From an uncultured beta proteobacterium (GTDB lineage: Bacteria; Pseudomonadota; Gammaproteobacteria; Burkholderiales; Burkholderiaceae_F), in the NCBI GenBank assembly GCA_963746085.1, contig CAVVAI010000008.1, positions 291,777 through 355,776 on the forward strand: 64,000 nt of DNA, read 5' to 3'. The first letter of the stretch is position 1; each line of letters begins with the position of its first letter. Below are positions 29,137-63,401 of this stretch, one piece after another. The translations under genes and the position numbers were made by a program. The notes beneath the pieces are model-generated. The model searched no databases and was not told where the DNA came from. It saw only the letters and a list, made by a program, of their open reading frames with translations.

Positions 29137-31320
<2,184 letters not shown>

Positions 31321-38419: not shown

Positions 38420-39818
<1,399 letters not shown>

Positions 39819-40598: not shown

Positions 40599-41391
40599 CG
40601 GACTCGGCGGCTAGATCAGCGGGGATGCGGTCGATCGCATCCGTGCAGAACGCGTCGACGCCCCAGCTAAAAGCGTTCGTGCGCGCTGCGGCGAATTCAC
40701 CGTGTAGCAGAAGAGCCAGGTGCCGGCGCGCTTTATCTGGTGCGCCTGTTGGCCCGTCAGGTGGCGATGATTGGTGTGTAGCGACACGCAACTTCAGGCG
40801 CGCCATTTCTTTGTGCCACTCTGGCGGCACCAGGTCCACCAGCCAACCGCGCGGCAGGTCCGGCGCCACCTCGCGCGCTGCGATCAGCGCCGCAGGGGCA
40901 AACGAAGACAGCAATGGCACGCAAGCGTCGACTTGATCTGCGCGCGTCGCCGCCGGGCCGCATCAGATCCGCATAGACCTCCGCGGTCACCCGCGCCACG
41001 GCTGCGCCGGTCGCCGCTTCAAAGCCGGCGCCTGGCTTGATCTCGATATTCGGCCAGATGTCATGCTCGCGGCAAAAGCGCAGCGTTCGCTGCAGCGTCG
41101 GCACCGTCTCGCCGATGAAGCGCGCCGAATGCCAGCCGCCGACGTCGATCCGCTCAAGCTCCGCTGCACTCCGCTCGCTGACCGCGCCAACGGTGAGCGC
41201 GGTGCGCTCGAGCGTCGGGTCGTGCATCAGCACCGGCACGTCATCGACAGCCAGCATCGCGTCGAACTCAACGCCGCGATACCCGCGCTCGAGCCCACTC
41301 TTATCGCCGCAATCGTGTTCTCCGGTGCCAGCGCACCGCCGCCGCGATGCGCGAGCACGCGTGGGTACGGCCACGCGGCCGCACGACTCAT
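40573..41391 (-). pseudogene. ugpQ: glycerophosphodiester phosphodiesterase, at least 4 frameshifts
   Basis: '[30 protein letters not shown]' starts at ATG 41391. '[26 protein letters not shown]' follows a switch at about 41294-41296. 'PLLSSFAPAALIAAREV' follows a switch at about 40950. 'LHTNHRHLTGQQAHQIKRAG..YTVNSPQRA' follows a switch at about 40780. 'SWGVDAFCTDAIDRIP' follows a switch at about 40675. The conserved motifs are spread over three frames. Confidence 0.82.
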
Positions 41392-41912
41392 GCCGGATTC
41401 TCCATTGGACGAGAATCCCGCTTGCGCCGGATATAAATGACTTTCTCGACGCGCGCGACCACCATGCCTTCGTCATCCTTGATATCGATGTTAAACAGGT
41501 GCAGATGCTTGTCGCCCGCCTCGGTCATGCGCCGAATCTGTTCCAGATCGACCTCATTCAGATCGAAGCGTGCCCAAACGCGACCGCGGCCGGGCGCGAG
41601 GTAGTCGATCGATCCCGACTTGTCCCACACGCGATACTGAGCCCCCAGAATGTGAGACAGCATCACCATCAGAAACGGATCGGTCATCGCATACAGCGAT
41701 CCGCCGAAATGGGTGCCGACGTAGCTTCGATTCGACCAGCGCAGTCGCATGTCGACGGTGACGCTGCGAAAGTCGGGCGCGATGTGGCGTACGCGAATGC
41801 CCGCGCCCATGAACGGCGGCCATATGTTCATCAACACGCGCAGCATTCCGGGCGAAAGTTTGCGTAGCATCGCGCAAAGTGTAGGCAATCGCCGCCCATC
41901 GACCACGTTCAA
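41388..41912 (-). CDS. DUF4442 / hotdog-fold thioesterase-like protein
   Basis: '[17 protein letters not shown]...[16 protein letters not shown]' is YiiD C-terminal-like. The true start may be the internal 'MLRKLS'. Its stop overlaps the ugpQ ATG. Confidence 0.7.
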
Positions 41913-43133
41913 TGAAATCCCTCGGCCATCTGCGTGTGCTCGACTTGACGCGCGTGCTTGCGGGGCCGTGGTGTACGCAACTGCTGGCTGACCTCGGCGC
42001 CGAAGTGATCAAGATCGAGCGGCCGGGCAGCGGCGACGACACACGCGCGTGGGGGCCGCCGTACCTGAAGAACTCCGACGGCGCGGACACGTCGGAAGCT
42101 GCCTACTATCTGTCGGCCAATCGCGGCAAGCGTTCGGTCACGATCGACATTTCCAGACCGCGAGGGCCAGTCGCTGCTGCACAAGCTCGCGGACAGTGCG
42201 ACATGCGTCGTCGAGAACTACAAGGTCGGGCAGCTCGCGAAATACGGTCTCGACTACGCGCACTGACGGAAATCAATCCGGGGTTGATCTACTGCTCGAT
42301 CACCGGCTTCGGGCAGACCGGGCCGTATCGGATGCGCGCCGGCTACGACTTCATGATGCAGGGCATGGGCGGCTTCATGTGCATTACCGGCGAGCGCGAC
42401 GACCGCCCCGGCGGCGGGCCGCAAAAGGCCGGCGTCGCGGTGTCCGATCTGATGACCGGAATGTATTCGGCGGTGGCGATCCTCGCCGCGGTGACGCATC
42501 GCGAACGCAAGCGGCGAAGGGCAGCACATCGACATGGCACTCTACGACGTGATGATCGCGATGCTCGCGAACATGAACATGAATTACCTGACGTCCGGCA
42601 AGGCGCCGGGCCGCGCCGGTAACGCACATCCGAACATCGTGCCGTATCAGGTATTTGCAGCCGCCGACGGCCACGTGGTCGTCGCAGTGGGCAACGATTC
42701 GCAGTTCGTCAAATTCTGCGAAGTCGCGGGCACGCCGCGCCTGGCCACCGACGCGCGTTACCGGCGCAACGCGGATCGCGTTCGCAATCGCGAGATTCTG
42801 GTCGGCGAACTCGAATCGATCGTGGGCGCCAAGCCGGTGGCATTCTGGACCGAGCACCTGGACGCGGCCGGCGTCCCTTGCGGCGCCATCAACGACATCG
42901 CACACGCACTTGCAGATCCTCAGGTCGCTGCGCGCCAACTACGGGTCGATCTCGCACACGCGTTGGCCGGGCAGGTCCCCATGGTCGCAAATCCGATCAA
43001 GATGACGGCGACGCCGCCGAGTTACGAGCTGCCGCCGCCGATGCTCGGCGAGCACACTGCCAGCGTGCTGCGCGAATACGCAGGCATCGACGCAGAGCAA
43101 CTGCACTCTCTGAAGTCGCGCGGGATCGTCTGA
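41912..43133 (+). pseudogene. CaiB/BaiF family CoA-transferase, 3 frameshifts
   Basis: 'LRVLDLTRVLAGPWCTQLLADLGAEVIKIERPG.GDDTR.WGPP' runs to '..VTIDISRP'. After +1 at about 42161, 'EGQSLLHKLADS..VVENYKVGQLAKYGLDYA'. After -1 at about 42260, 'LTEINPGLIYCSITGFGQTGPY..RAGYDFMMQGMGG'. After +1 at about 42510, 'GEGQHIDMALYDV...NAHPNIVPYQVF' (ORF 42534..43133). Confidence 0.85.
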
Positions 43134-43421
43134 TTGCCTGCGTTGCATTTCAAAATTGCCGGCCAGGTGCAAGGCGTCGGTTTTCGCTATGCGATGTGCA
43201 ACGAGGCGCGCCGGCTGCGGTTGGCGGGGTGGGTGCGAAATTGCAGCGATGGCAGCGTCGAGGCAGTCGCCGTCGGCCAAGAAGCAGCACTTCAACGTCT
43301 GGCGCAGTGGGCCCAGCATGGACCTCCTGGGGCCAGCGTCGACGGCGTTCATGTCTGCGCGGCCAGCGATGCGCAGGCCGCCGACGCCGACGAGCCTTTC
43401 AACCAGCGTTCAAGCGCCTGA
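43134..43421 (+). CDS. acyP: acylphosphatase
   Basis: 'HFKIAGQVQGVGFRYAMCNEARRLRLAGWVRNCSDGSVEAV' is the acylphosphatase signature. TTG start is uncertain. Confidence 0.8.
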   Translation: MPALHFKIAGQVQGVGFRYAMCNEARRLRLAGWVRNCSDGSVEAVAVGQEAALQRLAQWAQHGPPGASVDGVHVCAASDAQAADADEPFNQRSSA

Positions 43422-44121
43422 AATACTGGGCTCGGAGTGCGAATTGGTCAATGCAGTGAAGCACATGTTGAACATTCATAGCTACGCGAACGCAGCAATT
43501 GAACAGCGACGGTACTCAGCGTCTCGCTGAGCACAAGCAAAACCTGCTCATCGTCAGAGTTATCGCAAGTCTCTGCTTCCTCACGTTAACGTTACTTGGC
43601 AGTTTGAGCTGGACTTAGGACAGGCATTAGACGATGTTCTGACCCCAAAGATCGAAGCGCTCGAGAAAAGCACAAAGAGCTCCTTCCTTGAGAAAGCGCT
43701 CATCCCCAGCGGACTAACGCTTGGTGCCGGAGCCGTCGTGCTGTCCGCCACTCAAATCTTTCCCGCCACGGCGGCGGCGGGCGACCTGCTGACACCCGCG
43801 GCTTGGCTGGCGGACAAGCTATACAAGCGATACAAAGGCTCGGGCCGCACGGATCGTCGACTGTTGGAAGGATTCATCACGTTTCGCAGCATGTCGCAGC
43901 CCACGCACCACATCGCAGTGACACGGAAACGGCAGATCCCCGACGAGCGGACAGGCGATAGACCGTCCGATATTCAACGCGAATGACCTTGCCGCTTCTT
44001 GCCTTATAGTCGAAGCGTACCTAGTCTGTTCCCTAGTCCCGCACTCGCGGCGTTAAACGCGTTGCTCGCACCTGGTGGCAAAGGAATCGGCGTAGCGAAC
44101 GAATCCAGCGAGGACTCAAGG

Positions 44122-45243
44122 ATGGCTATTGAATGCAGTGCCGAAAAATTCTCAGTGGCGGCACCCGATGATATGTCGGGCTTGGAGGCGGCCTTTCACG
44201 AAGGAAGAGTGCTTGCCGAAGACGTCGTCGGAATCATTGCTAAGACCGAGGGAAATGGAAAGGTCAACGACTTTTCGCGTCCTTTCGCACATCGCTGCTT
44301 TACCGAGTTGCTCGCCCACTGGACGAAGCGCCCTGCCTCGGAAGTTGACGAACGGGTTGCGTTCGTCATGTCGGGAGGATGTGAGGGCGTCATTTCACCC
44401 CATGCGACAGTGTTTTCACGGAAGATCACCAGCGCCACGCCCGTTGCGGGGCAGAAGCGTCTTTCAGTATCCATTGCGAACACACGGGAGCTAGCGCCGG
44501 AGGAAGTCGGCGCGCTGGCGCATGTCGAGCTCGTTGCGGCGGCGGTCCGCGATGCGCTCGCGGCAGCCGACCTCGCTTCGCTTGACGACGTTCACTATGT
44601 GCAGGTCAAGTGTCCTCTACTCACTTCCGAAAGAATCAACGACGCAAAGGCACGGGGGAAATCGGTGGTCACCGAAGACACGGCCCGCTCGATGGGATTC
44701 GCAAACGGTGCCTCTGCGCTGGGCATTGCACTCGGTCTTGGCGAGATCAACGGTCCGCTGGCTGCGCGCGACATTGGTCATAACCACGACCTCTACACAC
44801 TGCGCGGTGCTGCGTCTTCGGGCATCGAGATGCTTCGCTGTCAGGTCTTGCTGCTCGGCAATTCTGCGAATGCCGTCGGAGACTACGTATGCAGCCACGC
44901 AATGATGGAAGATCTCATCGACGCCGAAGGAGTGCGCAAGGCCTTGCGAGGGGCGGGTATTCCTGTTCAAGTGTCGGTAGAAGACGTTGATCGCGAGCGC
45001 ATTGTCAACGTCTTCGCCAAAGGACAAATTCCGGTGCATGGACGCATCCGCGGTCGCCGCACTACTCTCCTGACCGATACAGATCTCAATACACGTCCCT
45101 CACGCGCCGTACTCGGCGCCGTCGTCGCGTCGGTCGTCGGTGATCCCGCGATCTACGCCTCTGCAGGAATGAGCTATCACCAGGGGCCGGTCGGGGCTGG
45201 CGTGGCTGCCGTCGTGGCGCGTGTCGGCAGGCAGAGCCAATGA
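44122..45243 (+). CDS. ring-opening amidohydrolase (cyanuric acid amidohydrolase AtzD/TrzD / barbiturase family)
   Basis: ATG at 44122. 'IIAKTEGNGKVNDFSR', 'ERVAFVMSGGCEGVISPHATVF', 'VQVKCPLLT', 'HQGPVGAGVAAVVARV' match my memory of AtzD ('MGKTEGNGCVNDYTR', 'RVAFVMSGGTEGVLSPH'). 373 aa. Confidence 0.85.
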   Translation: MAIECSAEKFSVAAPDDMSGLEAAFHEGRVLAEDVVGIIAKTEGNGKVNDFSRPFAHRCFTELLAHWTKRPASEVDERVAFVMSGGCEGVISPHATVFSRKITSATPVAGQKRLSVSIANTRELAPEEVGALAHVELVAAAVRDALAAADLASLDDVHYVQVKCPLLTSERINDAKARGKSVVTEDTARSMGFANGASALGIALGLGEINGPLAARDIGHNHDLYTLRGAASSGIEMLRCQVLLLGNSANAVGDYVCSHAMMEDLIDAEGVRKALRGAGIPVQVSVEDVDRERIVNVFAKGQIPVHGRIRGRRTTLLTDTDLNTRPSRAVLGAVVASVVGDPAIYASAGMSYHQGPVGAGVAAVVARVGRQSQ

Positions 45244-45413
45244 CCTATGACATTTTTGTGCGCGAGGCAGCGCAGCTCGCAGGATTCGCGCTCGACGAAG
45301 CGGCACTTGCGGAGGTCACGTTGAGCCTTGAGCGGATCGCAGGGTTCGCGCAACTCTTGGAGGATATTCCACTCGCCTTGGAAGATGAGGCAGCGCCGAT
45401 ATGGCGTCCATAG
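45240..45413 (+). CDS. AtzG-like small protein (DUF4089; GatC-like partner of AtzE), 57 aa
   Basis: Not in the ORF track (under 60 aa). ATG at 45240 overlaps the upstream stop (ATGA). '[57 protein letters not shown]'. Its end overlaps the amidase start by 13 nt. Confidence 0.7.
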   Translation: MTYDIFVREAAQLAGFALDEAALAEVTLSLERIAGFAQLLEDIPLALEDEAAPIWRP

Positions 45414-46705
45414 TGGACAGCATCGCCAAAACCCTTGAGGTGATCGGAAAGCGCGACGCAGCCATCAATGCCTTCACCGCAATTACTCGAAACCGAGCGC
45501 TGAAGCAGGCTGCGGACGTAGCGGGCCGCAGAAAAAGGGGACCCCTCACAGGTGTGCCCTTTGCGGTGAAGAACCTTTTTGACGTCGAAGACATCGCGAC
45601 ACTCGCGGGCTCTAAGATCAATCGCGAGCATTCGCCTGCTGCAAGGGACGCCACGCTCATTACTCGTCTAGAGGCGGCCGGAGCCGTTCTCGTCGGAACG
45701 CTCAACATGGACGAATACGCGTTCGGCTTCACTACGGAGAACTCTCACTATGGGGCGACCCGGAACCCGCACGACCCAGACCGCGTCGCGGGCGGGTCTT
45801 CGGGTGGGTCCGCAGCGGCGGTCGCGGCCGGAATGGTGCCCCTCACACTGGGGTCCGATACGAATGGATCAATCCGCGTTCCGGCCGCCTACTGCGGCGT
45901 GTGGGGTCTAAAGCCAACTTACGGCAGGTTGTCGCGCGCCGGAACTTATCCGTTCGTTGCTTCCCTAGACCATGTAGGCCCGATCGCGCGAGATCTCGAT
46001 TTGCTCGCCGCGGCCTACGATGCGATGCAAGGGTACGACACCGCCGACCCCGTGTGCACCGATCGGATACCCGAACCGGTCACCGGCATGTCTGGAATCG
46101 GCAGCTTGCGAATTGCCAGCGCCAATGAATTCTTCGAGAGCAACTGCGAACCAGACATCTACGCTAAGGTTGTTGCCATCGGCGCGACGCTGGGCGTCAA
46201 GCAGTCGATAAAGCTTCCGCTAGCCGCCGCGGCGCGCGCTGCATCGATCGTGATCACAGCAGCGGAAGGCGCACAGCAACACCTTTCTAATCTGCGCCTG
46301 CGGCCGCGGGACTTCGATCCGTTAATCGTCAACCGTCTGCGGGCGGGCGCCCTCATACCCGCACATTGGCTCATACATGCTCAGCGCATCAGACGACGCG
46401 CGTGGCACGAAACAACGCGACTCTTTGAATCCGTGGATGCGATCCTTGCGCCGGCGACGCCGGTTACCGCGCAGCGCATCGGCGCAGAAACCTTCAACGT
46501 GCGCGGCATCGAAATGCTGGCCCGACCTAACACTGGGATGTTGACCCAGCCTGTCTCGTGTCTCGGCCTGCCTGTCATTTGTGCACCCATCGGAAAACTT
46601 AACGGCATGCCGGTCGGAATGCAGATCATTGCTGCACCGTGGCGCGAGGATGTCTGCTTTCGAGTGGCGCGCGCGATTGAGGCGCAGTGCTTGTCGGAAG
46701 CCTAG
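45401..46705 (+). CDS. AtzE-family amidase (amidase-signature enzyme; 1-carboxybiuret hydrolase-like)
   Basis: 434 aa. Amidase signature '[48 protein letters not shown]'. Immediately follows the AtzD-like and AtzG-like genes. Confidence 0.82.
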
Positions 46706-46723
46706 TTGGTTAAGCGATCACAA

Positions 46724-47947
46724 TCACGCCGTTCCGGCCCGTTCGAGTACCGCTGAAGCAAGCACATTGCAGCCTGCTGCCAGATCCTCGACGCGGGCGC
46801 TTTCAGCCTCGTTGTGGCTGATGCCACCCTCACACGGAACAAACACCATTGCGGTTGGCGTGATGCGCGACATGTAGACGGCGTCGTGTGCCGCACCGCT
46901 GACAATGTCGCGGTGGGAGTACCGGTGCCCACGAGCCGCGCGGCGCACCGACTCGACCAAGCCTTGGTCAAATTCGCTTGGCGGGAAGTACACGACTTCA
47001 GTGCATTCGATGTCGACGTGGCATTCACGTTTGACCGACGCGATGGCCTCACTCAGCCTGCCGGCCATCATGCCCAGCGTAGTGTCCTTTGCGTTACGCA
47101 GATCAACGCTCATTCGAACTTCACCAGGTACGACGTTGCGAGAGTTTGGTTTCGCTTGGAGGAATCCGACCGTACCGCGAGCGTAATCGGGACTTGCAAT
47201 CGCAATTCGGTTGACCTCGAGGACGAGCCGACTCGCCGCCAGCAACGCGTCGCGACGAGTTTCCATGGGCGTCGGGCCCGCATGCGCGTCCTGCCCTGTT
47301 ATGACGATGTCGAACCAGCGCTGGCCGAGCGCGCCTTGAACGACACCAATCGTAGTGCCCGTGTCTTCGAGCACAGGGCCTTGCTCAATGTGCGCCTCGA
47401 AGTAGGCGCCAAGTGGATGCGGCGGTGAGTCGCCGGCGTAGCCTATTGCTGTCAATGCGTCCGCAACGCTGACACCGTCGGCGTCCACCTGTGCCAAGGC
47501 ATAGTCCAACTTGTACGCCCCCGCATAAACGCCGGAGCCCATCATCGTGGGGACGAAGCGCGAACCTTCCTCATTCGTCCAAGCTATTATTTCCAGAGGC
47601 GCTTTCGTGCGAATGTTGGCGTCGTTCAAGCTGCGCACGACCTCAAGGCCGGCCATCACGCCGTACGCACCATCAAATTTTCCGCCCGATGGCTGAGAAT
47701 CCAGATGACTGCCCATCGCGATAGGGGCAAGCGTGGAGTCAGCTCCCCCGCGGCGAGCGAACACGTTGCCGATCCCGTCAATTTGAATTGAAAGTCCTGC
47801 CTCGCGGCACCAGTCTGCGAAACAGTCTCTTCCTTGCCGGTCAGCTTCGGTCATCGTGATCCGCCGAACACCTCCCTTCGGCGTTGCGCCAATGCGCGCA
47901 AGCTCCATGAGTGACTGCCACAAGCGTTCGGAATCGACGGCGAGCAC
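46724..47947 (-). CDS. M20-family Zn amidohydrolase (allantoate amidohydrolase / N-carbamoyl-L-amino-acid hydrolase type)
   Basis: 'ERLWQSLMELARIGATPKGGVRRI', 'GSHLDSQPSGGKFDGAYGV', 'WTNEEGSRF', 'DAHAGPTPM', 'SGAAHDA'. GTG at 47947 is the best start; the ORF continues upstream to 48214 without homology. Confidence 0.82.
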   Translation of the reverse strand: MLAVDSERLWQSLMELARIGATPKGGVRRITMTEADRQGRDCFADWCREAGLSIQIDGIGNVFARRGGADSTLAPIAMGSHLDSQPSGGKFDGAYGVMAGLEVVRSLNDANIRTKAPLEIIAWTNEEGSRFVPTMMGSGVYAGAYKLDYALAQVDADGVSVADALTAIGYAGDSPPHPLGAYFEAHIEQGPVLEDTGTTIGVVQGALGQRWFDIVITGQDAHAGPTPMETRRDALLAASRLVLEVNRIAIASPDYARGTVGFLQAKPNSRNVVPGEVRMSVDLRNAKDTTLGMMAGRLSEAIASVKRECHVDIECTEVVYFPPSEFDQGLVESVRRAARGHRYSHRDIVSGAAHDAVYMSRITPTAMVFVPCEGGISHNEAESARVEDLAAGCNVLASAVLERAGTA

Positions 47948-48150
47948 TGTGATATCTCTATCTACAACGGACTTCCAAATACGCGACGTTGCCGATTCCG
48001 ATCGACACCCTTCGCGACTGAAGTGCTCGATCACGGACCTATCCTCTAAATACTGTTCGCTTCGCCGGCTATCGTCGCTAACTATCGTCTTTGTGTGCGG
48101 GCTCCAAAGTGCTACGCGCACCAGCACTCGCCCGTGTGAATCCAGGTTCG

Positions 48151-48566
48151 TTAGGTTGTCGTCTTCTGTCCCCCAGCTTCGTCCGTGTGCTGTGCTATGG
48201 AAACATGAGCGCAAACAACTCGCCAGCCCTCAGGAGTGCGCATCCAAGTCTGTGATTGCCGGCCTACCTTGCCGCTATCCAAGCGCTTGTACTCGATGTT
48301 GGCGTACCGAAATCATGGCCAAACGTGGTGAGTACCTTGCGCGTTATGCTGCGCTGTGGCGCACCACCCTGCCCGGCGCGACGCCGTCGGTAGGTGCAGA
48401 TCTCATTCCAGCCATACAGGTTCTCTGCGATTCCATATCTCAGCGTGTAGTCCGACTTCCAGAACAGTTCTTCAAGCGTCGCGGGGTCGTTGCTCATAAG
48501 CGCGCGCTCGTAGCGTTCGAATGCGGCGCCCAGCTCGTCGAGCGGCCCGAGCAAATTGATCTCCAT
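48151..48566 (-). pseudogene. AtzH-like (NTF2-fold, DUF3225) protein, one frameshift
   Basis: ORF 48264..48566 reads 'LDELGAAFERYERALMSNDPATLEELFW...TTFGHDFG'. The expected C-terminus '[35 protein letters not shown]' is in another frame and ends at 'taa' at 48151. 1-nt loss at about 48302-48304. Confidence 0.65.
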
Positions 48567-48584
48567 GACCTACTCGTTTTCCAA

Positions 48585-49577
48585 CTACTGGAATGTGATT
48601 CCAGTTGTCTGAATCACGGGCCGCCAACGCTCGACTTCACTCTGAATGAAGCGCTGAGTTTCCGCCGCCGACATCGGAACGGGGGCAAGTGAAAGCTCAT
48701 CGAACCGGGACTTCATCTCGGCAAGTTCCAGAACTGCATAAATCTCGCGGTTGAGTCGCTGCACGATCGAAGGTGGCGTGGCCGCTGGCACCGCGACGCC
48801 AAACCAAGACATGGCGACGAGATCCGCATGACCAGATTCGACGAGAGTCGGCACCTCGGGAAGCTGCGGCACGCGCTTCGGTCCCGAGACGGCCAGTGGC
48901 CGCACTCTGTTTGCTCGAATTTGCGCGATCAGCGCTGGCATCGTGTCAATCGTGCCGTCAATCCGGCCAGCCATGATATCGACCAGGGCCGGTGCCGAGC
49001 CCTTGTACGGCACATGCGTGATCTGCGTACCCGTCGATGCCTTGAACCGCTCGAGCATCACATGACTCGGAGTCGCTGGACCGCTGGAGCTGAAGTTCAG
49101 CTTTCCCGGGTCGGCCTTCGCCGCCGCGATGATATCTGCGACGCTCTTAGCCGGCTGTTCGTTCGATACGACAAACACGAGTGGTGTCGCCGCGACCACC
49201 GCAACGTGCGCAAGATCTTTGAGAGGATCGTACTCGAGTTTGCGCGGCGTCGAAGGCGCAAAGGCGATCGGCGCAATGCTCGTCAAGACCATGGTGTAAC
49301 CGTCGGGCGCGGCCTTCGCCGCCACATCTGTTCCAAGTATGCCGGCGACACCGGGTCGGTTGTCGACGACCACTGGTTGCCCGAGACGTGCGGCAAGTCG
49401 CTCGCCTACAAGCCGCGCGACGATATCCGAGGTACCACCTGGCGGGAAGGGAACAACAAAACGCAACGGACGCGTTGGCCATTCCTGTGCTTGTGAGAGC
49501 GATGCGAAGCCTGTGAAAACAAGGAGAAAAGCAAGCCTCTTGAGCACGATACCTCCGAAGTTCTTGATGGCGATCAT
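48585..49577 (-). CDS. tripartite tricarboxylate transporter substrate-binding protein (TctC/Bug family)
   Basis: Signal peptide, then 'WPTRPLRFVVPFPPGGTSDIVARL...VVVDNRPG' is the Bug-family N-terminus. 330 aa. Confidence 0.88.
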   Translation of the reverse strand: MIAIKNFGGIVLKRLAFLLVFTGFASLSQAQEWPTRPLRFVVPFPPGGTSDIVARLVGERLAARLGQPVVVDNRPGVAGILGTDVAAKAAPDGYTMVLTSIAPIAFAPSTPRKLEYDPLKDLAHVAVVAATPLVFVVSNEQPAKSVADIIAAAKADPGKLNFSSSGPATPSHVMLERFKASTGTQITHVPYKGSAPALVDIMAGRIDGTIDTMPALIAQIRANRVRPLAVSGPKRVPQLPEVPTLVESGHADLVAMSWFGVAVPAATPPSIVQRLNREIYAVLELAEMKSRFDELSLAPVPMSAAETQRFIQSEVERWRPVIQTTGITFQ

Positions 49578-49755
49578 AACCGCCCTTCTAGACAGTTCGC
49601 GGCCGAAAATTTACCAGCATCCAGACCTTGGCTCCTATGTCTTCCCCTTGAAGCACGTTTGCTTACGTTGGCACAACTATGGCCGCTCTAATGTCGGTTC
49701 GGCAACCGTCCGAATCGTCTGCTTCTGGCCGCTAGCTGCCTACGCGAAAAACATG

Positions 49756-49786
49756 GTGATCAAAGTTACGTAGAAACTTTGATCAC
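49756..49786. promoter_or_regulatory. near-perfect 31-bp palindrome (candidate operator) in the divergent tctC-tctC intergenic region
   Basis: 'gtgatcaaagtt-acgtaga-aactttgatcac' has 12-bp perfect arms. It lies in an AT-richer spacer about 100 nt upstream of the 49888 gene. Confidence 0.4.
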
Positions 49787-49887
49787 AAGCTTCCCCAACT
49801 GTGACGACGTTCAATGTCGCGCCACGCGTCGTCGACAACATCGCGATGAGCGATACTAACGATGACCTCATTTGAGCGGCGGGCAAC

Positions 49888-50892
49888 GTGAATCGACGAC
49901 ATGCAATAGGTGTACTCGCGGCGGCGGGATTTGCTGCAAGCTGGACGGAACGGGTTGCAGCGCAATCGGCTAGTGCACAGTCCGGGTATCCGAACAGGCC
50001 GATTCGCCTGGTGGTGCCCTACCCCCCCGGCGGCCCGCTCGATACCGCAGCGCGTGCATTAGCGGAACGGGTCAAGGAAGCACTGGGCGTCATCGTCGTC
50101 GAGAACCGTCCCGGCGCGGGCGGCAATCTCGGTGTCGATCACGTCGCAAAGTCGCCACCCGACGGCTATTCGCTCGTCATCGGCGCGGTCGCAACGCACG
50201 CGGTCAATCCGTGGCTGTTCTCCAAGCTGCCCTATGACCCGGTCAGGGACTTCGCTCCGATCACGCTGATCGCGCACGTGCCGAACGTGCTGGTGATGAC
50301 ACCCGATCGCGCCGGCCAGCTCGGCGTTCGATCGGCACGAGAGTTGATCGATTACGCGCGCAAGAATCCGGCACGGCTTAACTACGCGTCGGGCGGCAAC
50401 GGCAGCGCCGGACACATGGCCGGCGAGCTGATGAAGTCGCAAGCGAAAATTTCGGCGGTTCACATTCCTTATGCAGGCGCAGCGCCGGCGCAACTCGGGT
50501 TGCTGGCGGGCCAGACCGATTTCATGTTCGACAACCTGGCGTCTGCCACCGCTCAGATCAAAGCCGGAAAGCTGCGCGCACTGGCAGCCACAACCGCTCA
50601 GCGCGCGAACGCAATGCCGGACGTGCCGACGATGGCAGAAGCTGGACTGCCCGGCTTCGATGTATCGACCTGGTTCGGCGTATTCGCACCCGCCGGTACT
50701 CCGAGAGAAATCGTCGCGCGGCTGAATGCGGCGTTCACCACCGCGCTGCGTTCACCCGAGATACGCGAACGTCTGGCACGCATGGGCGCCGAACCCGCGC
50801 CCGGCACACCCGATCAGTTTTCAGAGTTCGTGCGCAGCGAGCTGTCAAAGTATCAAAACGTGGTGAAGTTTTCCGGCGCGCGCGTCGACTGA
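49888..50892 (+). CDS. tripartite tricarboxylate transporter substrate-binding protein (TctC/Bug family)
   Basis: GTG start and signal peptide. 'YPNRPIRLVVPYPPGGPLDTAARALA...VVENRPGAGG'. 334 aa. Confidence 0.88.
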   Translation: MNRRHAIGVLAAAGFAASWTERVAAQSASAQSGYPNRPIRLVVPYPPGGPLDTAARALAERVKEALGVIVVENRPGAGGNLGVDHVAKSPPDGYSLVIGAVATHAVNPWLFSKLPYDPVRDFAPITLIAHVPNVLVMTPDRAGQLGVRSARELIDYARKNPARLNYASGGNGSAGHMAGELMKSQAKISAVHIPYAGAAPAQLGLLAGQTDFMFDNLASATAQIKAGKLRALAATTAQRANAMPDVPTMAEAGLPGFDVSTWFGVFAPAGTPREIVARLNAAFTTALRSPEIRERLARMGAEPAPGTPDQFSEFVRSELSKYQNVVKFSGARVD

Positions 50893-50902
50893 TTCGGCAT
50901 TT

Positions 50903-52189
50903 TCATTTCATCAGCCCAGGCAGCCACAGCGAAATCGCCGGAATGTAGGTGACGAGCAGCAGCGCGAGCGCACATCGCGCCATAGAACGGCCATAGCTCC
51001 TTCGACACCTGCTCCATCGTGACCTTGCCGATGGCGCAGCCGACGAACAGCGTCGGCCCCACCGGCGGCGTGATGAGTCCGATGCCCAGGTTCAGGATCA
51101 TGATCATGCCGAAGTGCACCGGATCGATCCCGAGCTTGAGCGATCACCGGCATGAAGATCGGCGTGCAGATCAGCAGCATCGGCGCCAGGTCCATGAACG
51201 TACCGAGCAGCAGCAGAAGAATGTTCACGAGCAGCAGGAACACGTACTTGTTGTCCGAGATCGTCAGGAAGAACAGCGGTCACCTTGGCCGGGATCTGCA
51301 TGATCGCCATCATGTAGCCGAAGGCCACCGAAAACCCGATCAGCATCATCACCATCGCTACGGTCTTGACCACGCGGTGGACCAGGTGCGGCAGGTCGCG
51401 CCACTTGTAGTCGCGGTAGACGAAAAAGGTGACGAGAAACGCGTAGACGCAGGCGACCGCGGCCGACTCGGTGGGCGTGAATACGCCGGACAGGATGCCG
51501 CCCATGATGATGACGACAGTGCCCAGGCCCCACAGCGCGTCGATGACGATCTTCGGGATCGTCGCTCAGCGGAATCGGCTCGCCCTTCGGGAAGTCGCGC
51601 TTTGTGGGCCGTCCACAGGACGAGTCCGATCAGGCACAGTCCGAACAGCAGCCCGGGAAATATGCCGGCGAGGAACAGATGCGCGACCGAAATCGTGCCG
51701 CCCGCGGCCAGCGAGTAGATGACCGCGTTGTGCGACGGCGGAATCATCAGCGCCTGCACCGACCCGCAGATCGTTACGTTGGTGGCGAAGACGCGCGGGT
51801 AGCCGGCCTTGACCATCTGCGGGATCATCACCGAGCCGATCGACGCGGTGTCGGCCACCGACGATCCCGAGATGCAGCCGAACAGCGAGCTGGCAAGGAT
51901 GTTCACCAGCGCCAGTCCGCCGCGGATGAAGCCGACGAAGACCCTGGCGAGGTTGATCAGGCGCGCCGCCATGCCGCCCTCGGCCATGATGCCGCCGGCC
52001 AGCACGAAGAACGGAATCGCCAGCAGCGCGAAGTCGTCGGTGCCGTCGGAGATCTTCAGCATCACCGCTTCGAGCGGGATGTCGACCCAGAACGCGGCGA
52101 TGATCGCCGCCAGGCCGAGCGCGTAGGCGACCGGCACGCCGAAGCGCGCACAGGACGGCGAACGAACCCAGCAGTACGAGAATGTCCAT
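50903..52189 (-). pseudogene. dctM: TRAP transporter large permease (DctM), about 6 frameshifts
   Basis: DctM sequence is split over ORFs 51566..52348 ('MDILVLLGSFAVLCAL'), 51358..52137, 51104..51505 ('MGGILSGVFTPTESAAV'), 50911..51243 and 50853..51119. The real tail 'LALLLVTYIPAISLWLPGLMK*' is in a further frame. Junctions at about 52141, 51578, 51553, 51283, 51140 and 50968. Confidence 0.85.
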
Positions 52190-52191
52190 TA

Positions 52192-52721
52192 CTACTCGAG
52201 CTCGGTCGCCTGGTCGCTGTACATGATCGACGTCGCCGGCGGGCTCACCGACCCAAACGCGCTCGATCAGGAACAGCAGCGTCAGCAACCCGCCGATGGG
52301 GATCGGCAGGTAGACGAATGCCGCCGAAAGCCAAGGGAACTCGGCCATCGTCTGGAACCGGGTGATGACGGCACAGATGGACGCCGTAGCCGAGCATGAA
52401 CAGCGCGATCGGCCCCATGCAGGCGTCGACGCCCCACAGCATCGCGCGCCGGATGTCCGGGCTCACGGCGTTGAGCAGCGCTTCGACCGCGACGTGCACG
52501 TTGGCGCGGTACACCGCAGCGCCGCCGATGAACGAAAACATCACCATCAGCGACACCGGCCGCCGGCTCCGGCCACGACAGCGGACTGTTCATCACGTAG
52601 CGCATGAACACGCCGAGCCGGGATGATCAGCGTGATCGACGACCAGTGCCGCGCCCGAAAGCACGACGCACACGAAGTAGATCCGCTCCATCGCCTGCGC
52701 GTAGCGTTGCCTTGCGTTCAT
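52192..52721 (-). pseudogene. dctQ: TRAP transporter small permease (DctQ), about 5 frameshifts
   Basis: 'MNARQRYAQAMERIYFVCVVLSGAALVV', 'GVFMRYVMNSPLSW', 'SLMVMFSFIGGAAVYRANVHVAVEAL' and 'MAEFPWLSAAFVYLPIPIGGLLTLLFLIERVW' lie in different frames. The count of switches is approximate. Confidence 0.75.
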
Positions 52722-52795
52722 GCGCGCGATCACCGGAAACTGAAACGCGCAAAGAGACACGCGGAGCAAGACGCCCGCGTGTCATCGGCGGCCGC

Positions 52796-53803
52796 CTACT
52801 TGGTGTCTTCGATGCGCTTAAGCAGCGCGGCGTACTTGGCGCCGTACTTGTCGCGGATCGGCTGCGTAGCCTTGTAGAAAGCGGCTTTGTCGGCCGCGAC
52901 GAACTTGACGCCGGCCGCCTTGAGCTTGGTTTCGGCCTCGCCGACGTACGCGTCCCAGAGCTGCGCGCTGCTCCATCTGCGCCTCGCGCGAAACCTTGCG
53001 CACCAGGTCCTGGTCGGCCTTGGAGAGCGTGTCCCAGGTGCGCTTGGAAAACACGAAGATCTCGGGAATGATCAGGTGGCCGGTCAGGCTGTACACCTTG
53101 CTCACCGTGTAGTGGTTCTGCGCGAGCAGCGTCGGCGGATTGTTCTCGGCGCCGTCGACGACGCCGCGTCTGCAGCGCGCCGAACAGCTCGTTGAAGCCC
53201 ATCGCAACGCCGTTGCCGCCCATCGCGTTCATCGTCTCGACGAACAGCGGGTTGCCCATCATGCGGATCTTCATGCCCTTCAGATCCGTCGGGCTTGGTC
53301 ACCGGCTTGTTCGAGTAGACGTTGCGCGTGCCGGCGTCCATCCAGCCGAGCACCACCAGCCGCGACTGCGGACTCGCGGTGACCTTCTCGAGCAGTTCCT
53401 GGCCGATCGGACCGTCGATCACTTTCCGCATGTGGGCTTCGTCGCGGAAGATGAACGGCAGGTTGAAGACGTTCAGCTCGTCGACCACCGGGCCCATCGC
53501 GCCGACCGAAATGCGCGCGATCTGCAGCGCGCCGACCTGCGCCTGCTCGATCATCTCCTTCTCGCCGCCCAGCTGCATCAGCGGGTACATCTGGATCGAG
53601 ATGCGGCCGTTGGTCGCCGTCTCCAGCTTCTTGCCCATGCGCTGAATCGCCTCGACCGTCGGATACCCGAGCGGATGCACGTCCGAAGCCTTCCATACCA
53701 CCTTGTCCTGGGCCGATACCGTTCCCGTGATAGTCGCGGCGCCAATGGCGGCAGACGACGCGCACACCTTGACGAAATCGCGACGCTTCATGCGAAGTTC
53801 CAT
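52796..53803 (-). pseudogene. dctP: TRAP transporter substrate-binding protein (DctP), 3 frameshifts
   Basis: ATG at 53803 with RBS. 'MELRMKRRDFVKV' signal runs to '..NVYSNKPVTKPD'. After a switch at about 53287, 'DLKGMKIRMMGNPLFVETMNAMGG'. After about 53168, 'GVVDGAENNPPTLLAQNHY...'. After about 52957, 'QLWDAYVGEAETKLKAAGVKFV...LLKRIEDTK*'. Confidence 0.85.
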
Positions 53804-53981
53804 GTTGTCTCCTTTGCGGTTCGAAACTACCTGCGGCGGACGGCACCTTGGTATTTTTATTCTATTTTTCAAAAATGTAGCATGAAAATTTCATGCCGCG
53901 CCAGGAGATCGTTCAGCGGATGGCAGCGCGCGAGCGCCGCCATCCGCGTGTCACGACTGCAGCGATGCCACACAGTCGCGC

Positions 53982-55349
53982 TTAGTGCGCAGCAACGGCA
54001 ACGCGCGCGTTTGCGCGCTTCGACGTCAGGGCTGCGCGCTCGGAGCGCGCCAGCAACCGCTCGCTCCACGCGGTCGGTTTGTGGACTTGCCGCTCGGCGA
54101 TGTAATGCCGCGCCCGGCGCGTATCGCCCACACGGATCGAAGCATCGATCAAGGTCAGCGTCAGCAGATCGCGTTGCGCATGACTGCCGCCAAAAACGTT
54201 TGCCGTGTCGCGCACCGGTTCAATCGCAGCAATGGCGTCAGCGTGCCGATTGCTCGCATATGCGGCCAGTCCGTCGGCCAATGGCATGCCCACCTCGCGC
54301 GTCATCGCGGCATTGACAGCCTCCCCCTTGACCGCGGCGCGCATCGAGCGTCGCAAACGAGCGATTTCGTCAGCCCGGCCGGTCGCCGCAAAGCTCATCA
54401 TCGCGTGAGCATCGTTGAACGCGTAATAGCCTGCCTCCAATTCCAGCTTGCCCGCCCAGACGTCGGCGACACTTTCGAACCGGTTGCCGACGTCGACGCC
54501 TTCCAGGCGCAGCCGCCACAGCAGCGCCGATGCGTCGAGCAGCACCAGCATCATGTCGAGCTGTGGACCCGCCAGCTTCTGGTCGAACAGATCGAGCGCC
54601 GCGTCGAAATTTCCGAGGTCCATGTTGAACAACGCCAGATGCCACCAGTTGTGCGGCGCGAACATATTGTCGGGTGCCCAGTCGGACTCGCGCGACTGCA
54701 GCCACTCGATCCCCTCGGCAATGCGGCCCTGCATCTCCATCACATGGGTCACCGCATGCACCGCCCAGCCGTCGCGCGGCTGCAATTCAAGGGCGCGGCG
54801 TGCAGCGCGCTCGGCTTCCGGATACTGATTGCATTCCTCCAAACCGAACGCATGCATGCCGAGGACGTACGAATAGCTAGGAACCTTCTCGTCCCAATGG
54901 GGCAGCACACGCGAGATGCGATTACGCAGATTCAGCGCATCACCCTGGAAGAAGTCCATCAGATGCGCGGTTTGAATGGCAAGCGTGTCGCGCGGATGTT
55001 TCATCAGGACCGAGTCGAAAGCGCGCGATGCGTCACGCCACTTCCCATCGACCAGCAGCTCGGCCGCATCGAGCAGATCGCGCTCGCGCGAATTCATCTT
55101 CGCCCTCAGCGCCGCAGCCTTGGCGATAGCGTCGCGCACGGCCGGCAGGTAGCGCTGTTCGGTCGCCGTGTACATCGCGAACACGTTGAACAAGTGCGCG
55201 AGCGCGAAGTCGGGGTCGGCCTGCAACGCCTGTTGCATAGTGGCGAGCGGATCGCCGGTATAGCTGTGAAACTGCGTCAGGGCGGTTTCGAAATGTTCCA
55301 GCGCCTGCGCACTCGATGTCGAGACCGCAAGCCCACGTAAGTCCTTCAT
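53982..55349 (-). CDS. tetratricopeptide repeat protein (TTC38-like)
   Basis: 455 aa. 'ALEHFETAL', 'ADPDFALAH', 'GMHAFGLEECNQY.EAE.AARRALEL.P.D.WA.HA..HV.EMQGR' is as I remember for the TTC38 family. Confidence 0.7.
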   Translation of the reverse strand: MKDLRGLAVSTSSAQALEHFETALTQFHSYTGDPLATMQQALQADPDFALAHLFNVFAMYTATEQRYLPAVRDAIAKAAALRAKMNSRERDLLDAAELLVDGKWRDASRAFDSVLMKHPRDTLAIQTAHLMDFFQGDALNLRNRISRVLPHWDEKVPSYSYVLGMHAFGLEECNQYPEAERAARRALELQPRDGWAVHAVTHVMEMQGRIAEGIEWLQSRESDWAPDNMFAPHNWWHLALFNMDLGNFDAALDLFDQKLAGPQLDMMLVLLDASALLWRLRLEGVDVGNRFESVADVWAGKLELEAGYYAFNDAHAMMSFAATGRADEIARLRRSMRAAVKGEAVNAAMTREVGMPLADGLAAYASNRHADAIAAIEPVRDTANVFGGSHAQRDLLTLTLIDASIRVGDTRRARHYIAERQVHKPTAWSERLLARSERAALTSKRANARVAVAAH

Positions 55350-55455
55350 CTAATTCTCCAGTAAGTAGTGATGACCTCGCGATAAGCCGCAGCGCACAAA
55401 GCGCTGTCGGCTTGGTCGCGAGGAGTTATTTCGGCGCAAAGCGTCCGAAATAACC

Positions 55456-55872
55456 TTAGTTGTATCGATAGTTGGAAGAAATATCCGACACCGGCGCCGC
55501 CGAAGTCTTCTTTCCTTCGTTGCGGATGACGTGCCATACGCCGCCCTGCTTGTCGCCGTTGACGTCGCCCGCCTTCGCGTCGCCCGCGAAGAAGTACAGC
55601 GGCTTGCCCTTGTAGGCCCACTGCGCTGCGCCGTCATCGCGCTTGACGATCGAAAAATCGCCGCCCGCGAGACCGGGATTGGCGACAACGAACGGAGGCC
55701 ACGCCGCAGCACAACCGCCGTTGCAGTTGCTCTTGTTGGCAGCATCCTTGTCGAACGTGTACAGCGTCTTTCCGTCCTTGCTGGCCATGACCCCGTTGGC
55801 GACCAGGGTCGGGGTCGCGTGAACCGACAAAGCGGTGACCGCGATCGCGAAGAACATCGATGTGTATCTCAT
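55456..55872 (-). CDS. secreted COG4315-type protein (Yx(F/W/Y)xxD repeat)
   Basis: Signal peptide. 'GKTLYTFDKD......C.G.CA..WPP' and 'QWAYKGKPLYFFAGD' repeats. Confidence 0.75.
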   Translation of the reverse strand: MRYTSMFFAIAVTALSVHATPTLVANGVMASKDGKTLYTFDKDAANKSNCNGGCAAAWPPFVVANPGLAGGDFSIVKRDDGAAQWAYKGKPLYFFAGDAKAGDVNGDKQGGVWHVIRNEGKKTSAAPVSDISSNYRYN

Positions 55873-55972
55873 TTAAAGCTCCTCTTTCTTAGTGGGTTAA
55901 GCGTGTTTCTGTGTCAGCAACCGAGCACACATACGTGGCGCGCTGCGGATCGGATGCAGGACATCCAGACGG

Positions 55973-56905
55973 CTAGTGAGTGACCGGCGCAAGCGCATCG
56001 AACACGCGTTTGGACTGGTCTTCGCTGATCATTCCGGCCAGCAGGTCGCCGAAGCGCGGTTCTTTGATGCCCGAAACGATGTATTGCCAGCGGTAGGCGG
56101 CCAGCACATGCGACTCGACGTGCGATGACTCGGCGGCCGTTAGAACGCGCCCGCAAATCGCGCTGAAATACGCGACATCTGCCTTCGCCTGTCGCTGCAG
56201 CGTGCCGTCGATGCCGGCCATCAGCGCGATCAGATCGTCGACCGCCGCGTCGCGCTCTTCGTCGCTCAGCCTTTCGTTTTCACGCGCCCATTCGAGCTCG
56301 TCGATGATCGCGTGCTGCGATTCCTCTTTCCAGTGAAAGAAGAACACGTCCTTGTATAGCGGCGACAGCTGCTGATCGGGCTCGATGCTTTGCCGGTAGT
56401 GCACCTGCGTGAAAATTTCGATGTGGCAGGTCAACGCCAGCACGGCCCAGGTCGACTTGCCGAGTACGAAAAGGGCGACATCGTTGGGCTGAGGCACGAA
56501 CCGGTAGCCGTCGGGCATTTGCTCAGCCGCCAGCAGCTCGATTCTGCGAAACAACCGCTGGTGCTTGAGTTCTTCGTCGGTAAAGCGAATCAGCGCTTCG
56601 AATGCGGTCTGGTCACCCAGCGCATGGTCGCGCGTAATGTCGAGCATCTTCGCGCCAATGAAGCGCTCGACCAGTCCGAACATGTTGGCGTAGGTCCGGC
56701 CCTGGATCTGCGACAGTAGCCGACGCTCGCCGGCGTTCAGTGAGTCGATGCGATGCGCGAACGAAAGCCCATCGGGCAAGAACTTGTGGTCGGTGTCGAA
56801 GTCCCGGCCACGGATGACGTCACGCTCGATGTCCCAGCGGATGCGCTTCGAAACCTCGATGCATTTGGCATAACGCTGGGTGTTGACCGATTCGAATACG
56901 TGCAT
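55973..56905 (-). CDS. ferritin-like diiron-carboxylate protein (AurF-like oxygenase family candidate)
   Basis: Two E...ExxH-type motifs ('FTDEELKHQ', 'HWKEESQHA') plus upstream 'ERRLLSQIQG'. The start is ATG 56905 or the upstream codon at 56959. Confidence 0.55.
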   Translation of the reverse strand: MHVFESVNTQRYAKCIEVSKRIRWDIERDVIRGRDFDTDHKFLPDGLSFAHRIDSLNAGERRLLSQIQGRTYANMFGLVERFIGAKMLDITRDHALGDQTAFEALIRFTDEELKHQRLFRRIELLAAEQMPDGYRFVPQPNDVALFVLGKSTWAVLALTCHIEIFTQVHYRQSIEPDQQLSPLYKDVFFFHWKEESQHAIIDELEWARENERLSDEERDAAVDDLIALMAGIDGTLQRQAKADVAYFSAICGRVLTAAESSHVESHVLAAYRWQYIVSGIKEPRFGDLLAGMISEDQSKRVFDALAPVTH

Positions 56906-57041
56906 GATCGTTCCCTGATGTCGGACATCGTGGTACGAATTGTCGGCAGCGACGGCCACTACGTCGTGAGACCAGTGTCCCGGCCGTATCCCGGTACGGG
57001 GCTGATTGGCGGGGAAAACGTGGGACCTGAGTCCCGGTGGG

Positions 57042-58118: not shown

Positions 58119-58190
58119 GTCAAAGGGCTGGATTACGATGCGATCGAATCTGTGGAAGTCAAAATTTAACGCTACGCGAGTGATCCTGTC

Positions 58191-60457: not shown

Positions 60458-60919
60458 TTGAAAATCCGAGATCAAAAGAACTTCTGGTCAGGCTTGATGT
60501 TCCTGGGGTTCGGCGCGTTCTTTGTCGGCTGGGCGCAGCAGTACGACTTGGGATCCGCAGCCCGCATGGGTCCTGCGTTTTTCCCGACGATGTTGGGCGC
60601 CATGCTGTTCTTGCTCGGCGGGATCGTTCTGATCGAAGGCCTGGTGGTGGAAACCCCCGATGGCAAGATCGAGCCGTTCAACTTCAGAGCGCTGATACTG
60701 GTGTTGGGCTCGGTCGTCGCGTTCGGGATGCTACTGCGCCCGGCGGGGCTACTCGTTGCACTGTTCGTGCTGGTTTGCGTGTCGAGCTTCGGCAGTCATG
60801 AGTTCAAGCTGCGCGATGTGTTGCTGCTGTCGGTCGGGATGTCGCTGTTGGTACTGGGGGTGTTCATTTACGGTCTGAGTATGACGATCCCCGTATTGCC
60901 GTCGTTCATGCGCGAATAG
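60458..60919 (+). CDS. tctB: tripartite tricarboxylate transporter small membrane protein TctB
   Basis: 153 aa, 4 TM segments. Directly upstream of tctA. Confidence 0.8.
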   Translation: MKIRDQKNFWSGLMFLGFGAFFVGWAQQYDLGSAARMGPAFFPTMLGAMLFLLGGIVLIEGLVVETPDGKIEPFNFRALILVLGSVVAFGMLLRPAGLLVALFVLVCVSSFGSHEFKLRDVLLLSVGMSLLVLGVFIYGLSMTIPVLPSFMRE

Positions 60920-60928
60920 GAATCCCCC

Positions 60929-63306: not shown

Positions 63307-63401
63307 GCTGCTCCTCCACGAGCTGCCCTAGTACGATTCAGGTCACGAGCGAACGACGGCCGCGTCGCTATGCTCTTCACTTACTCGTGCGGGGTTTCCA
63401 A

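Follow-up and report, generated by a model that had tools for sequence, protein, structure and literature searches.

The closest described relative of the locus considered here is the atzDGEHF operon of Pseudomonas sp. ADP, which is located on plasmid pADP-1. The chemistry of the AtzD-AtzEG-AtzH pathway is taken here from PMC6219798. Esquirol et al. (2018) reported that Proteobacteria also possess atzG-atzE-atzH clusters without atzD and atzF, including the HpxX/Y/Z oxalurate system of Klebsiella. Peat et al. (2013; PMC3758960) described a signature at AtzD positions 195, 321, 325, 345 and 346, which reads R-T-R-G-G in cyanuric acid hydrolase (CAH) and N-H-K-V-S/A in barbiturase. The present work deals with an island of about 6.4 kb encoding homologs of AtzD, AtzG, AtzE and AtzH in an uncultured soil or water beta proteobacterium of the Burkholderiales. 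It was found in a stretch of 64,000 nucleotides, hereafter the window (contig CAVVAI010000008.1 of assembly GCA_963746085.1, positions 291,777 to 355,776). The initial annotation of this stretch interpreted the locus as a variant atz-type module, a reasonable interpretation that is partly supported. Judging by its sequence, the AtzD homolog is a member of the AtzD/barbiturase (Toblerone-fold) family and not a canonical CAH, and the two-unit island probably serves to import and break down a cyanurate-type cyclic ureide for nitrogen.

The window and the atzDGEHF operon have the D, G, E and H homologs in common, and the D-G-E order with its overlaps is kept. However, while the operon of Pseudomonas sp. 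ADP unites five genes including AtzF, the window carries D, G, E and H in two convergent transcription units, AtzD-AtzG-AtzE on the plus strand and TctC1-AtzH-M20 on the minus strand. AtzF is missing, and AtzH has moved to the second unit, behind a TctC gene and ahead of a gene for an M20 hydrolase. Unlike the genes of pADP-1, those of the window form a chromosomal insertion without insertion sequence (IS) elements, and the AtzD homolog is only 46% identical to its plasmid counterpart and belongs to another type, referred to below as N-type. The Klebsiella Hpx genes, found next to allantoate amidohydrolase, resemble the window in having the G-E-H trio near an M20 gene without AtzF. They differ in that an AtzD homolog is present here and that the transporter is of the tripartite tricarboxylate transporter (TTT) family here and of the ATP-binding cassette (ABC) type there. 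The HpxX model was not reached (22.8 vs. 70 bits), nor was that of HpxZ (90.5 vs. 135 bits, measured on the truncated AtzH). As far as can be judged from sequence, three features would distinguish the locus from the described system: the non-canonical AtzD clade, a receptor of the TTT family and, instead of AtzF, a hydrolase of the carbamoylase type. The gene identities proposed by the initial annotation, i.e., AtzD, AtzG, AtzE, TctC, AtzH, M20 and a second TctC, were all confirmed by Pfam and NCBIfam scans, and the overlaps between the plus-strand genes, which it had called translationally coupled, can be read directly in the sequence (Table 1).

The insertion is proven by an empty site in a contig of a related metagenome-assembled genome (MAG), GCA_038216465.1 (L166), in which acyP is followed by TctC and DctMQP, with about 88 nt between acyP and TctC. 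The order of genes in L166 is ...secD-secF-...-purB-GST-GDPD-DUF4442-CoA-transferase-acyP-TctC-DctMQP (minus strand)-Iso_dh-ADH-tctB-tctA. The same core order is found in the window, GST and SecD of the two being 87% and 93% identical, respectively. Searches with SecD point to a Burkholderiaceae-like host: the best match, at 95% identity, is on metagenome contigs, and MAGs recorded as 'Burkholderiaceae bacterium' match at about 80%. Because homology to L166 is lost after the acyP stop codon and regained at position 49843, the island occupies approximately 43422-49842, between acyP and the core gene TctC2. The right border suggested initially, 50892, turned out to be about 1 kb too far: TctC2 is core, and it is only 35% identical to the TctC1 of the island.

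The accessory character of the segment is also seen in its composition. The GC content of 43422-50892 is 0.598, the lowest among 227 sliding 7.5-kb windows (mean 0.621, standard deviation 0.0097). The mean GC content at third codon positions is 0.67 for the seven genes in this segment vs. 0.757 ± 0.047 for 42 other genes. The compositional dip is modest yet consistent, and the profile is not flat; together with presence or absence between conserved flanks, it bears out the accessory island of the initial annotation. Every open reading frame (ORF) of the island falls into a catabolic or transport family. Hallmarks of mobility such as an integrase, an IS element, a target tRNA or direct repeats on either side were not detected at the island borders, in line with what had been noted before about integrase, tRNA and IS: no tRNA lies within 14 kb of the island, and direct repeats at its borders occur at chance level only. 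No riboswitch or other Rfam family was found in the 43-51 kb region.

Family membership of the AtzD homolog is evident from TIGR02714 (392 bits, full length) and from NF052395, the NCBIfam CAH equivalog, whose cut-off of 360 is passed with 410.8 bits. The dyads K41/S84, K163/S232 and K300/S347 align with K40/S83, K161/S231 and K299/S347 of the Moorella CAH, and both Arg53 and Arg328 are kept. Thus the three Ser-Lys dyads, one in each domain, the comparison of which with AtzD and barbiturase had been proposed, are retained; the specificity signature, by contrast, matches neither family, being N-T-R-A-G (N195, T324, R328, A348 and G349). In PMC9118981 and PMC3758960, CAH is set apart from barbiturase by arginines aligning with AtzD R194/195 and R324/325, and PMC9118981 gives for CAH the C-terminal motif S-G-G-x-E-x-Q-G-P-x-G-G-G-P. 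The window protein has R328 as the equivalent of R324/325 and Asn195 at the R194/195 position, an arrangement shared by all 41 N-type sequences. In place of the motif it reads S-A-G-M-S-Y-H-Q-G-P-V-G-A-G-V, with Ala instead of Gly after the third Ser and Val instead of the motif Pro. Throughout the 41 members, N-type sequences carry a one-residue insertion in the motif region, along with correlated changes at carbonyl site C. In the Moorella CAH, R193 pairs with E351 at this site; in the N-type, the Arg is replaced by Asn and the partner Glu by Phe or Tyr (Tyr in the window). Failure of two published CAH-defining sequence features strengthens the suggestion of the initial annotation that the substrate may differ from that of the described system.

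The AtzD homolog shares with the canonical CAHs (AtzD, TrzD, Moorella, Azorhizobium) the fold family, the dyads, Arg53, Arg328 and the equivalog assignment, at 46-49% identity. The canonical enzymes have the site-C Arg, Gly after the third Ser, the loop Glu and the motif Pro, whereas the window homolog has Asn, Ala, Tyr plus the one-residue insertion, and Val, respectively. Barbiturase (Rhodococcus erythropolis, PDB 5HWE) and the N-type have in common the site-C Asn and Ser-Ser-Gly after the domain-2 nucleophile. However, identity to the window homolog is 41%, the signature is N-H-K-V-S against N-T-R-A-G, and barbiturase is the most distant reference in the tree, although it is also the root. 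Assignment as a barbiturase was rejected, as only one of the five signature positions (Asn) matches. In a neighbor-joining tree without support values, for which barbiturase was taken as an arbitrary outgroup, the N-type is monophyletic (41 of 41 terminals) and sister to the clade of Moorella CAH, TrzD and AtzD.

In a survey of 84 homologous loci, N-T-R-A-G was found in 43, whose proteins all share about 50% identity or more with that of the window; the other 42 have R-T-R-G-G or R-E-R-G-G (R-type). An exact-sequence look-up found no record identical to the AtzD homolog of the window. Approximately 112 of the best 120 metagenome cluster representatives are N-type. All 41 N-type loci among GTDB species representatives are MAGs; the best match in that set is 85% identical, and the nearest homologs (79-85% identity) all lie on MAG or metagenome contigs. 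Among the PLSDB plasmids there is no N-type gene, only canonical AtzD-type genes with less than 60% identity.

The amidase encoded downstream of the AtzD homolog exceeds the cut-offs of two models, NF006631 (612 vs. 461 bits) and TIGR02715 (590 vs. 426 bits). It matches AtzE of Pseudomonas (PDB 6C62) with E = 4.7e-140, the GGSSGGS stretch and the VKN context of the catalytic Lys being aligned. Scores above both cut-offs, the amidase signature and the adjacent AtzG, which is 51-66% identical to its counterparts in the loci L003, L004 and L006, mark the pair as a predicted AtzE-AtzG.

The AtzH gene needs separate consideration. The frameshift noted in the initial annotation is real in this sequence, being a 1-nt deletion (ACG[G]CCAAC) near 48303-48312; it is not readable as biology. 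Beyond the deletion, the last 50 residues are encoded in the next frame and show 82% identity to the L004 ortholog. Once the frame is repaired, the protein matches AtzH (6BJT) with E = 1.3e-39 and retains the residues that align with the catalytic Tyr22 and Arg46. Measured against intact L166 orthologs, core genes of the window contain at least 16 frame breaks within about 35 kb: tgt, purB, GDPD and CoA-transferase have one each, DctM has six and DctP three, and most of DctQ is gone; mutL is degenerate as well. The frame-broken core stretches are 30189-31317, 38435-39680, 40973-41379, 41912-43130 and 50906-53791, and also 14440-16300. Amino-acid identity inside the broken fragments is 72-96%. 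These data suggest that the core-gene breaks are consensus indel errors or very recent decay. Because at least 16 breaks occur in core genes, purB among them, the AtzH frameshift is uninformative about decay, and it is preferable to regard the deletion as an error of the assembly or as part of a genome-wide pattern, not as a selective loss of the module.

TctC1, for which a signal peptide can be read from the sequence, is the most tightly linked partner of the AtzD homolog, since its orthologs (68-81% identity) adjoin N-type AtzD in six distinct places (L001/L002, L003, L004, L006 and L010). It is the likely receptor for the ring substrate. According to the initial annotation there is no adjacent tctAB. 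This holds for TctC1 itself; nevertheless, a tctB-tctA pair is present elsewhere in the window. It is the only TTT permease there and takes the same position relative to Iso_dh and ADH in L166. The pair is a possible partner of TctC1.

The combination of AtzD-AtzG-AtzE with TctC and AtzH recurs in three other Burkholderiales MAG contigs, which answers the call for a synteny search made in the initial annotation. Both flanks and gene orders differ. In a Casimicrobiaceae MAG (L004), AtzD-AtzG-AtzE is accompanied by M20 on the minus strand (a 79% ortholog) and by TctC-AtzH. On a metagenome contig (L003), an M20 gene of another lineage and a PuuR-like regulator are found with AtzD-AtzG-AtzE-TctC-AtzH, a TRZ/ATZ-type amidohydrolase and an ABC transporter. 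On a further MAG contig (L006) the order is TctC-AtzH-AtzD-AtzG-AtzE. There is no AtzF in L003, L004 or L006.

From the family memberships, the conserved catalytic residues, the recurrence of the gene set and its insertion into a core locus, we infer a route that assigns a substrate, a TctC1 ligand, a permease partner and a role for M20. TctC1 would bind an anionic ring compound in the periplasm and deliver it to a TTT permease encoded elsewhere, e.g., tctBA at a distance of 10.6 kb. The N-type AtzD would open the ring by means of the conserved domain-2 Ser-Lys dyad, giving a carboxy-acylurea, which would be 1-carboxybiuret in the case of cyanuric acid. AtzE-AtzG would then deamidate the terminal amide to produce 1,3-dicarboxyurea, and AtzH would remove one carboxyl group to give allophanate, so that the two steps together would release NH3 and CO2. 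Finally, with no AtzF at hand, the co-located M20 carbamoylase-type hydrolase would cleave the last ureido bond; alternatively, allophanate would decay to urea, to be handled elsewhere in the genome. Taken as a whole, this scheme, including the origin of the island as a horizontally acquired catabolic module, seems fairly probable. For cyanuric acid as the physiological substrate the chances appear to be about even, and some other ring compound is a distinctly weaker candidate.

Several observations weigh against this scheme. Whereas all 45 R-type sequences have the Glu and the Pro of the CAH motif, none of the 41 N-type ones does. The AtzD homolog has Asn at the position of the site-C Arg, and the R188K and R188Q mutants of the Azorhizobium CAH lose activity 5,000- and 23,000-fold, respectively. 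The literature search yielded no N-type protein that had been assayed. The ligands for which TctC proteins are known are carboxylates and not ring ureides. The island contains no regulator gene, AtzH is broken by the deletion mentioned above, and the nearest relatives of the M20 protein (58-74% identity) occupy 80 metagenome loci in which atz genes are absent.

In the final step of the scheme, the locus departs from the atz operon in gene content. As the initial annotation had stated, AtzF is absent: a tblastn search of the 64 kb with AtzE found no second amidase-signature gene. Biuret hydrolase was said to be lacking too, and indeed no isochorismatase-family match was obtained among the ORFs scanned, a scan that was not an exhaustive six-frame search. 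The M20 protein scores 439 bits with TIGR01879 (cut-off 204), and a reading as AllC (allantoate amidohydrolase) was rejected (TIGR03176, 259 bits vs. a cut-off of 598). Its start is inferred, the ORF being open up to 48214. The closest PDB entries are 5THW and 5I4M, Burkholderia structural-genomics proteins of unknown function, followed by the N-carbamoyl-beta-alanine amidohydrolase 8C46. The N-carbamoyl-beta-alanine/N-carbamoyl-L-amino-acid amidohydrolases 8C46, 8APZ and 3N5F are matched over the full length with E = 1e-114 to 1e-117, yet the window M20 is closer to 5THW and 5I4M than to any of these. The M20 carbamoylase family cleaves a ureido group beside a carboxylate. By analogy, this chemistry would be compatible with allophanate, and it is as a substitute for AtzF that we infer a role for M20. 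No description of an M20 hydrolase of this kind inside an atz-type island was found in the literature examined.

Whether M20 is a pathway enzyme at all is finely balanced. It could instead be a passenger with a function of its own, e.g., on N-carbamoyl or N-acyl amino acids, the route then ending via urea and urease or via AtzF or urea amidolyase elsewhere in the genome. This possibility, slightly the weaker of the two, is favored by the 80 loci of the nearest homologs, which have neither AtzD, AtzE, AtzG nor AtzH and are instead surrounded by genes for peptide ABC transporters (Dpp/Opp), a class-III aminotransferase and members of the FAH family. As none of the 80 loci is atz-linked, an M20 subfamily dedicated to atz-type modules was rejected as well. 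In addition, the L006 module lacks an M20 gene over 8.5 kb of downstream sequence, AtzH and M20 are some 180 nt apart, and both 1,3-dicarboxyurea and allophanate decay spontaneously, without an enzyme, to urea (PMC6219798). On the other hand, M20 lies within the insertion, in line with TctC1 and AtzH, and its L004 ortholog holds the same slot. Besides, N-type AtzD has an M20 gene of a second lineage near it in L003, L007 and L008 (60% identity between L003 and L007/L008, 44-45% to the window M20), and the chemistry of the family may fit allophanate. An M20 carbamoylase-family gene is located within 5 kb of AtzD in 5 of 41 N-type loci vs. 0 of 42 R-type loci, and the association represents two or three independent events.

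A second alternative retains the architecture and changes the substrate: the N-type clade would have its own specificity, with AtzEG and AtzH processing an analogous acylurea. Less symmetric rings would be candidates, among them ammelide, 5-azauracil, an (iso)cyanurate or barbiturate with an N- or 5-substituent, and a product of purine oxidation. To our knowledge, cyanuric acid and barbiturate are the only substrates of the Toblerone-fold family known so far. The argument for another one starts from the signature, which corresponds neither to R-T-R-G-G nor to N-H-K-V-S, and from the correlated remodeling of site C, which is seen in each of the 41 N-type sequences (Arg to Asn, Glu to Phe or Tyr, the insertion, loss of Pro). 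AtzG-E-H trios are, moreover, able to serve other acylureas, such as oxalurate in Hpx. Gene neighborhoods are also relevant. A TRZ/ATZ-family amidohydrolase is encoded at most 4 kb from AtzD in 23 other N-type loci, directly upstream in most of them, and is enriched in N-type vs. R-type loci (Fisher p = 2e-8). The best PDB match of the L028 representative is AtzA (4V1X, E = 8e-98), and the L003 enzyme matches 8-oxoguanine deaminase/AtzB and TrzN. These amidohydrolases agree with chemistry of the s-triazine type and count in favor of the main scheme. RidA, a CrtI-like flavoprotein and an M17 peptidase are also recurrent near N-type AtzD. The neighbors of most N-type genes (AtzA/TriA-like deaminase, RidA, flavoprotein, M17) are wholly unlike those of canonical CAH, and because of them an amino- or oxo-substituted triazine-like ring is favored over pyrimidine oxidation. 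Nevertheless, the protein exceeds the cut-off of the NCBIfam CAH equivalog, three of the five signature positions are CAH-like, and the tree, computed without bootstraps, puts the clade between CAH clades and not with barbiturase. AtzE and AtzH are also about as similar to the proteins of Pseudomonas sp. ADP as are those of canonical atzD-linked clusters. All this leaves a separate specificity as a tentative, rather unlikely alternative to the cyanurate-type scheme.

The neighborhoods of AtzD homologs in other genomes fall into several kinds. In L018-L042 and L067 (e.g., L028, 5769-9929), which come from Nitrospinota-like and unclassified MAGs, an AtzA/TriA-like amidohydrolase gene directly precedes N-type AtzD, and RidA, a CrtI/amine-oxidase-like flavoprotein, small unknown ORFs, a cupin and an M17 aminopeptidase are encoded as well. 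The alphaproteobacterial N-type loci L007 (9559-16122), L008, L014 (9584-11080) and L015 have AtzH directly upstream of AtzD, without AtzG and AtzE; L007 and L008 encode, in addition, a different amidase (NF006169, 478 vs. 391 bits), an AtzB/8-oxoguanine-deaminase-like enzyme and the second M20 lineage. The canonical R-type loci L043-L071 (e.g., L058, 15975-19869, and L057, 11165-13776) belong to Firmicutes, Acholeplasmataceae and some archaeal MAGs. Their neighbors are an AllG/FdrA-type oxamate carbamoyltransferase, carbamate kinase, a xanthine/uracil permease and PucR; each of these gene families is represented in 15-19 of 42 loci. Ring opening may accordingly be followed by carbamoyl transfer in a route that yields ATP.

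That the island is a decaying, non-functional remnant is very improbable: although AtzH is frameshifted, regulator and AtzF are missing, the left spacer has an open frame that could derive from a former gene and the adjacent tripartite ATP-independent periplasmic (TRAP) transporter has many frame breaks, the remaining five genes of the island are full length with intact catalytic residues, AtzH keeps its similarity to the ortholog after the shift, and the frame breaks of core genes such as purB and tgt point to consensus errors or a genome-wide feature.

Table 1. Features of the island, its flanks and other parts of the window (positions in the 64,000-nt stretch).
Feature	Position	Strand	Evidence or remark
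acyP (acylphosphatase), core left flank	43134-43421	plus	PF00708 E = 4.8e-21; 66% identical to L166 AcyP
Left spacer, AT-richer	43422-44121		GC 0.563; presumed AtzD-G-E promoter region
Unassigned open frame, ~150 codons, in left spacer	43528-43986		No convincing start codon
Ring-opening amidohydrolase, AtzD/barbiturase (Toblerone-fold) family, N-type	44122-45243	plus	PF09663 415 bits
AtzG-like small subunit, 57 aa	45240-45413	plus	PF13318 E = 1.1e-9; start overlaps AtzD stop (ATGA)
AtzE-family amidase, putative 1-carboxybiuret-hydrolase type	45401-46705	plus	13-nt overlap with AtzG end
M20 Zn-hydrolase, hydantoinase/carbamoylase family	46724-~47965	minus	18-nt gap to converging AtzE
AtzH-like NTF2-fold protein (DUF3225)	48151-48566	minus	PF11533 E = 1e-25 over first 89 residues
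TctC1, TctC/Bug periplasmic binding protein, first gene of minus-strand unit	48585-49577	minus	PF03401 246 bits
Right spacer, AT-richer	49578-49842		GC 0.529 (measured over 49578-49887); holds perfect 12-nt inverted repeat
TctC2, core gene outside island	49888-50892	plus	83% identical over full length to L166 TctC after acyP
TPR protein, second insertion	53982-55349	minus	
AurF-like di-iron oxygenase-type ORF, second insertion	55973-56959	minus	
LuxR-type regulator fused to alpha/beta hydrolase, second insertion	57042-58118	minus	
tctB-tctA membrane components, core	60458-62437	plus	PF07331 and PF01970
Third TctC-family gene, downstream of tctBA	63363-64000		Runs off right window end; 40-41% identical to TctC1 and TctC2

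Neither spacer shows similarity to related loci or to the remainder of the window, and promoter and terminator scans gave results at chance level. The open frame of the left spacer, which has no NCBIfam match and resembles nothing in related loci, may be what is left of a gene brought in with the island. One weak sigma-70-like match in this spacer, at 43983-44010, is not above chance. The right spacer contains an inverted repeat at 49756-49786, GTGATCAAAGTT-N7-AACTTTGATCAC, with perfect 12-nt arms and a 7-nt loop; on the minus strand a T-run follows it. The repeat is situated about 180 nt upstream of TctC1, was scored as terminator-like on the minus strand and could be an operator or a relic terminator. 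Apart from the island, a second insertion relative to L166 is present at 53900-58150, between DctP and the Iso_dh/ADH/tctBA block.

These results bear on how AtzD homologs are named and counted. Automatic annotation labels N-type proteins 'cyanuric acid amidohydrolase', although the clade is devoid of the key Arg and of the CAH motif, and mutation of this Arg costs 10^3.7- to 10^4.4-fold activity in a genuine CAH. If the clade does hydrolyze cyanuric acid, then the threefold Arg triad would be dispensable and enzymes for pool water and bioremediation could be drawn from a wider sequence space. Otherwise, a new reaction and a new natural pathway for an N-heterocycle would exist in uncultured Burkholderiales, Nitrospinota-like bacteria and Chloroflexota, and metagenomic 'atzD' counts would overstate the potential for cyanuric acid degradation. 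A third substrate specificity in the Toblerone-fold family, with a natural pathway for another N-heterocycle encoded by the island and by the versions linked to an AtzA/TriA-like deaminase in Nitrospinota-like and other MAGs, is a speculative reading of the N-T-R-A-G clade; so is, taken jointly, its extension that an M20 carbamoylase replaces allophanate hydrolase and a TTT binding protein recognizes a non-carboxylate ring anion. The island also supplies candidates for an allophanate/ureido hydrolase outside the amidase-signature family and for a receptor of the TTT type that binds a ring ureide.

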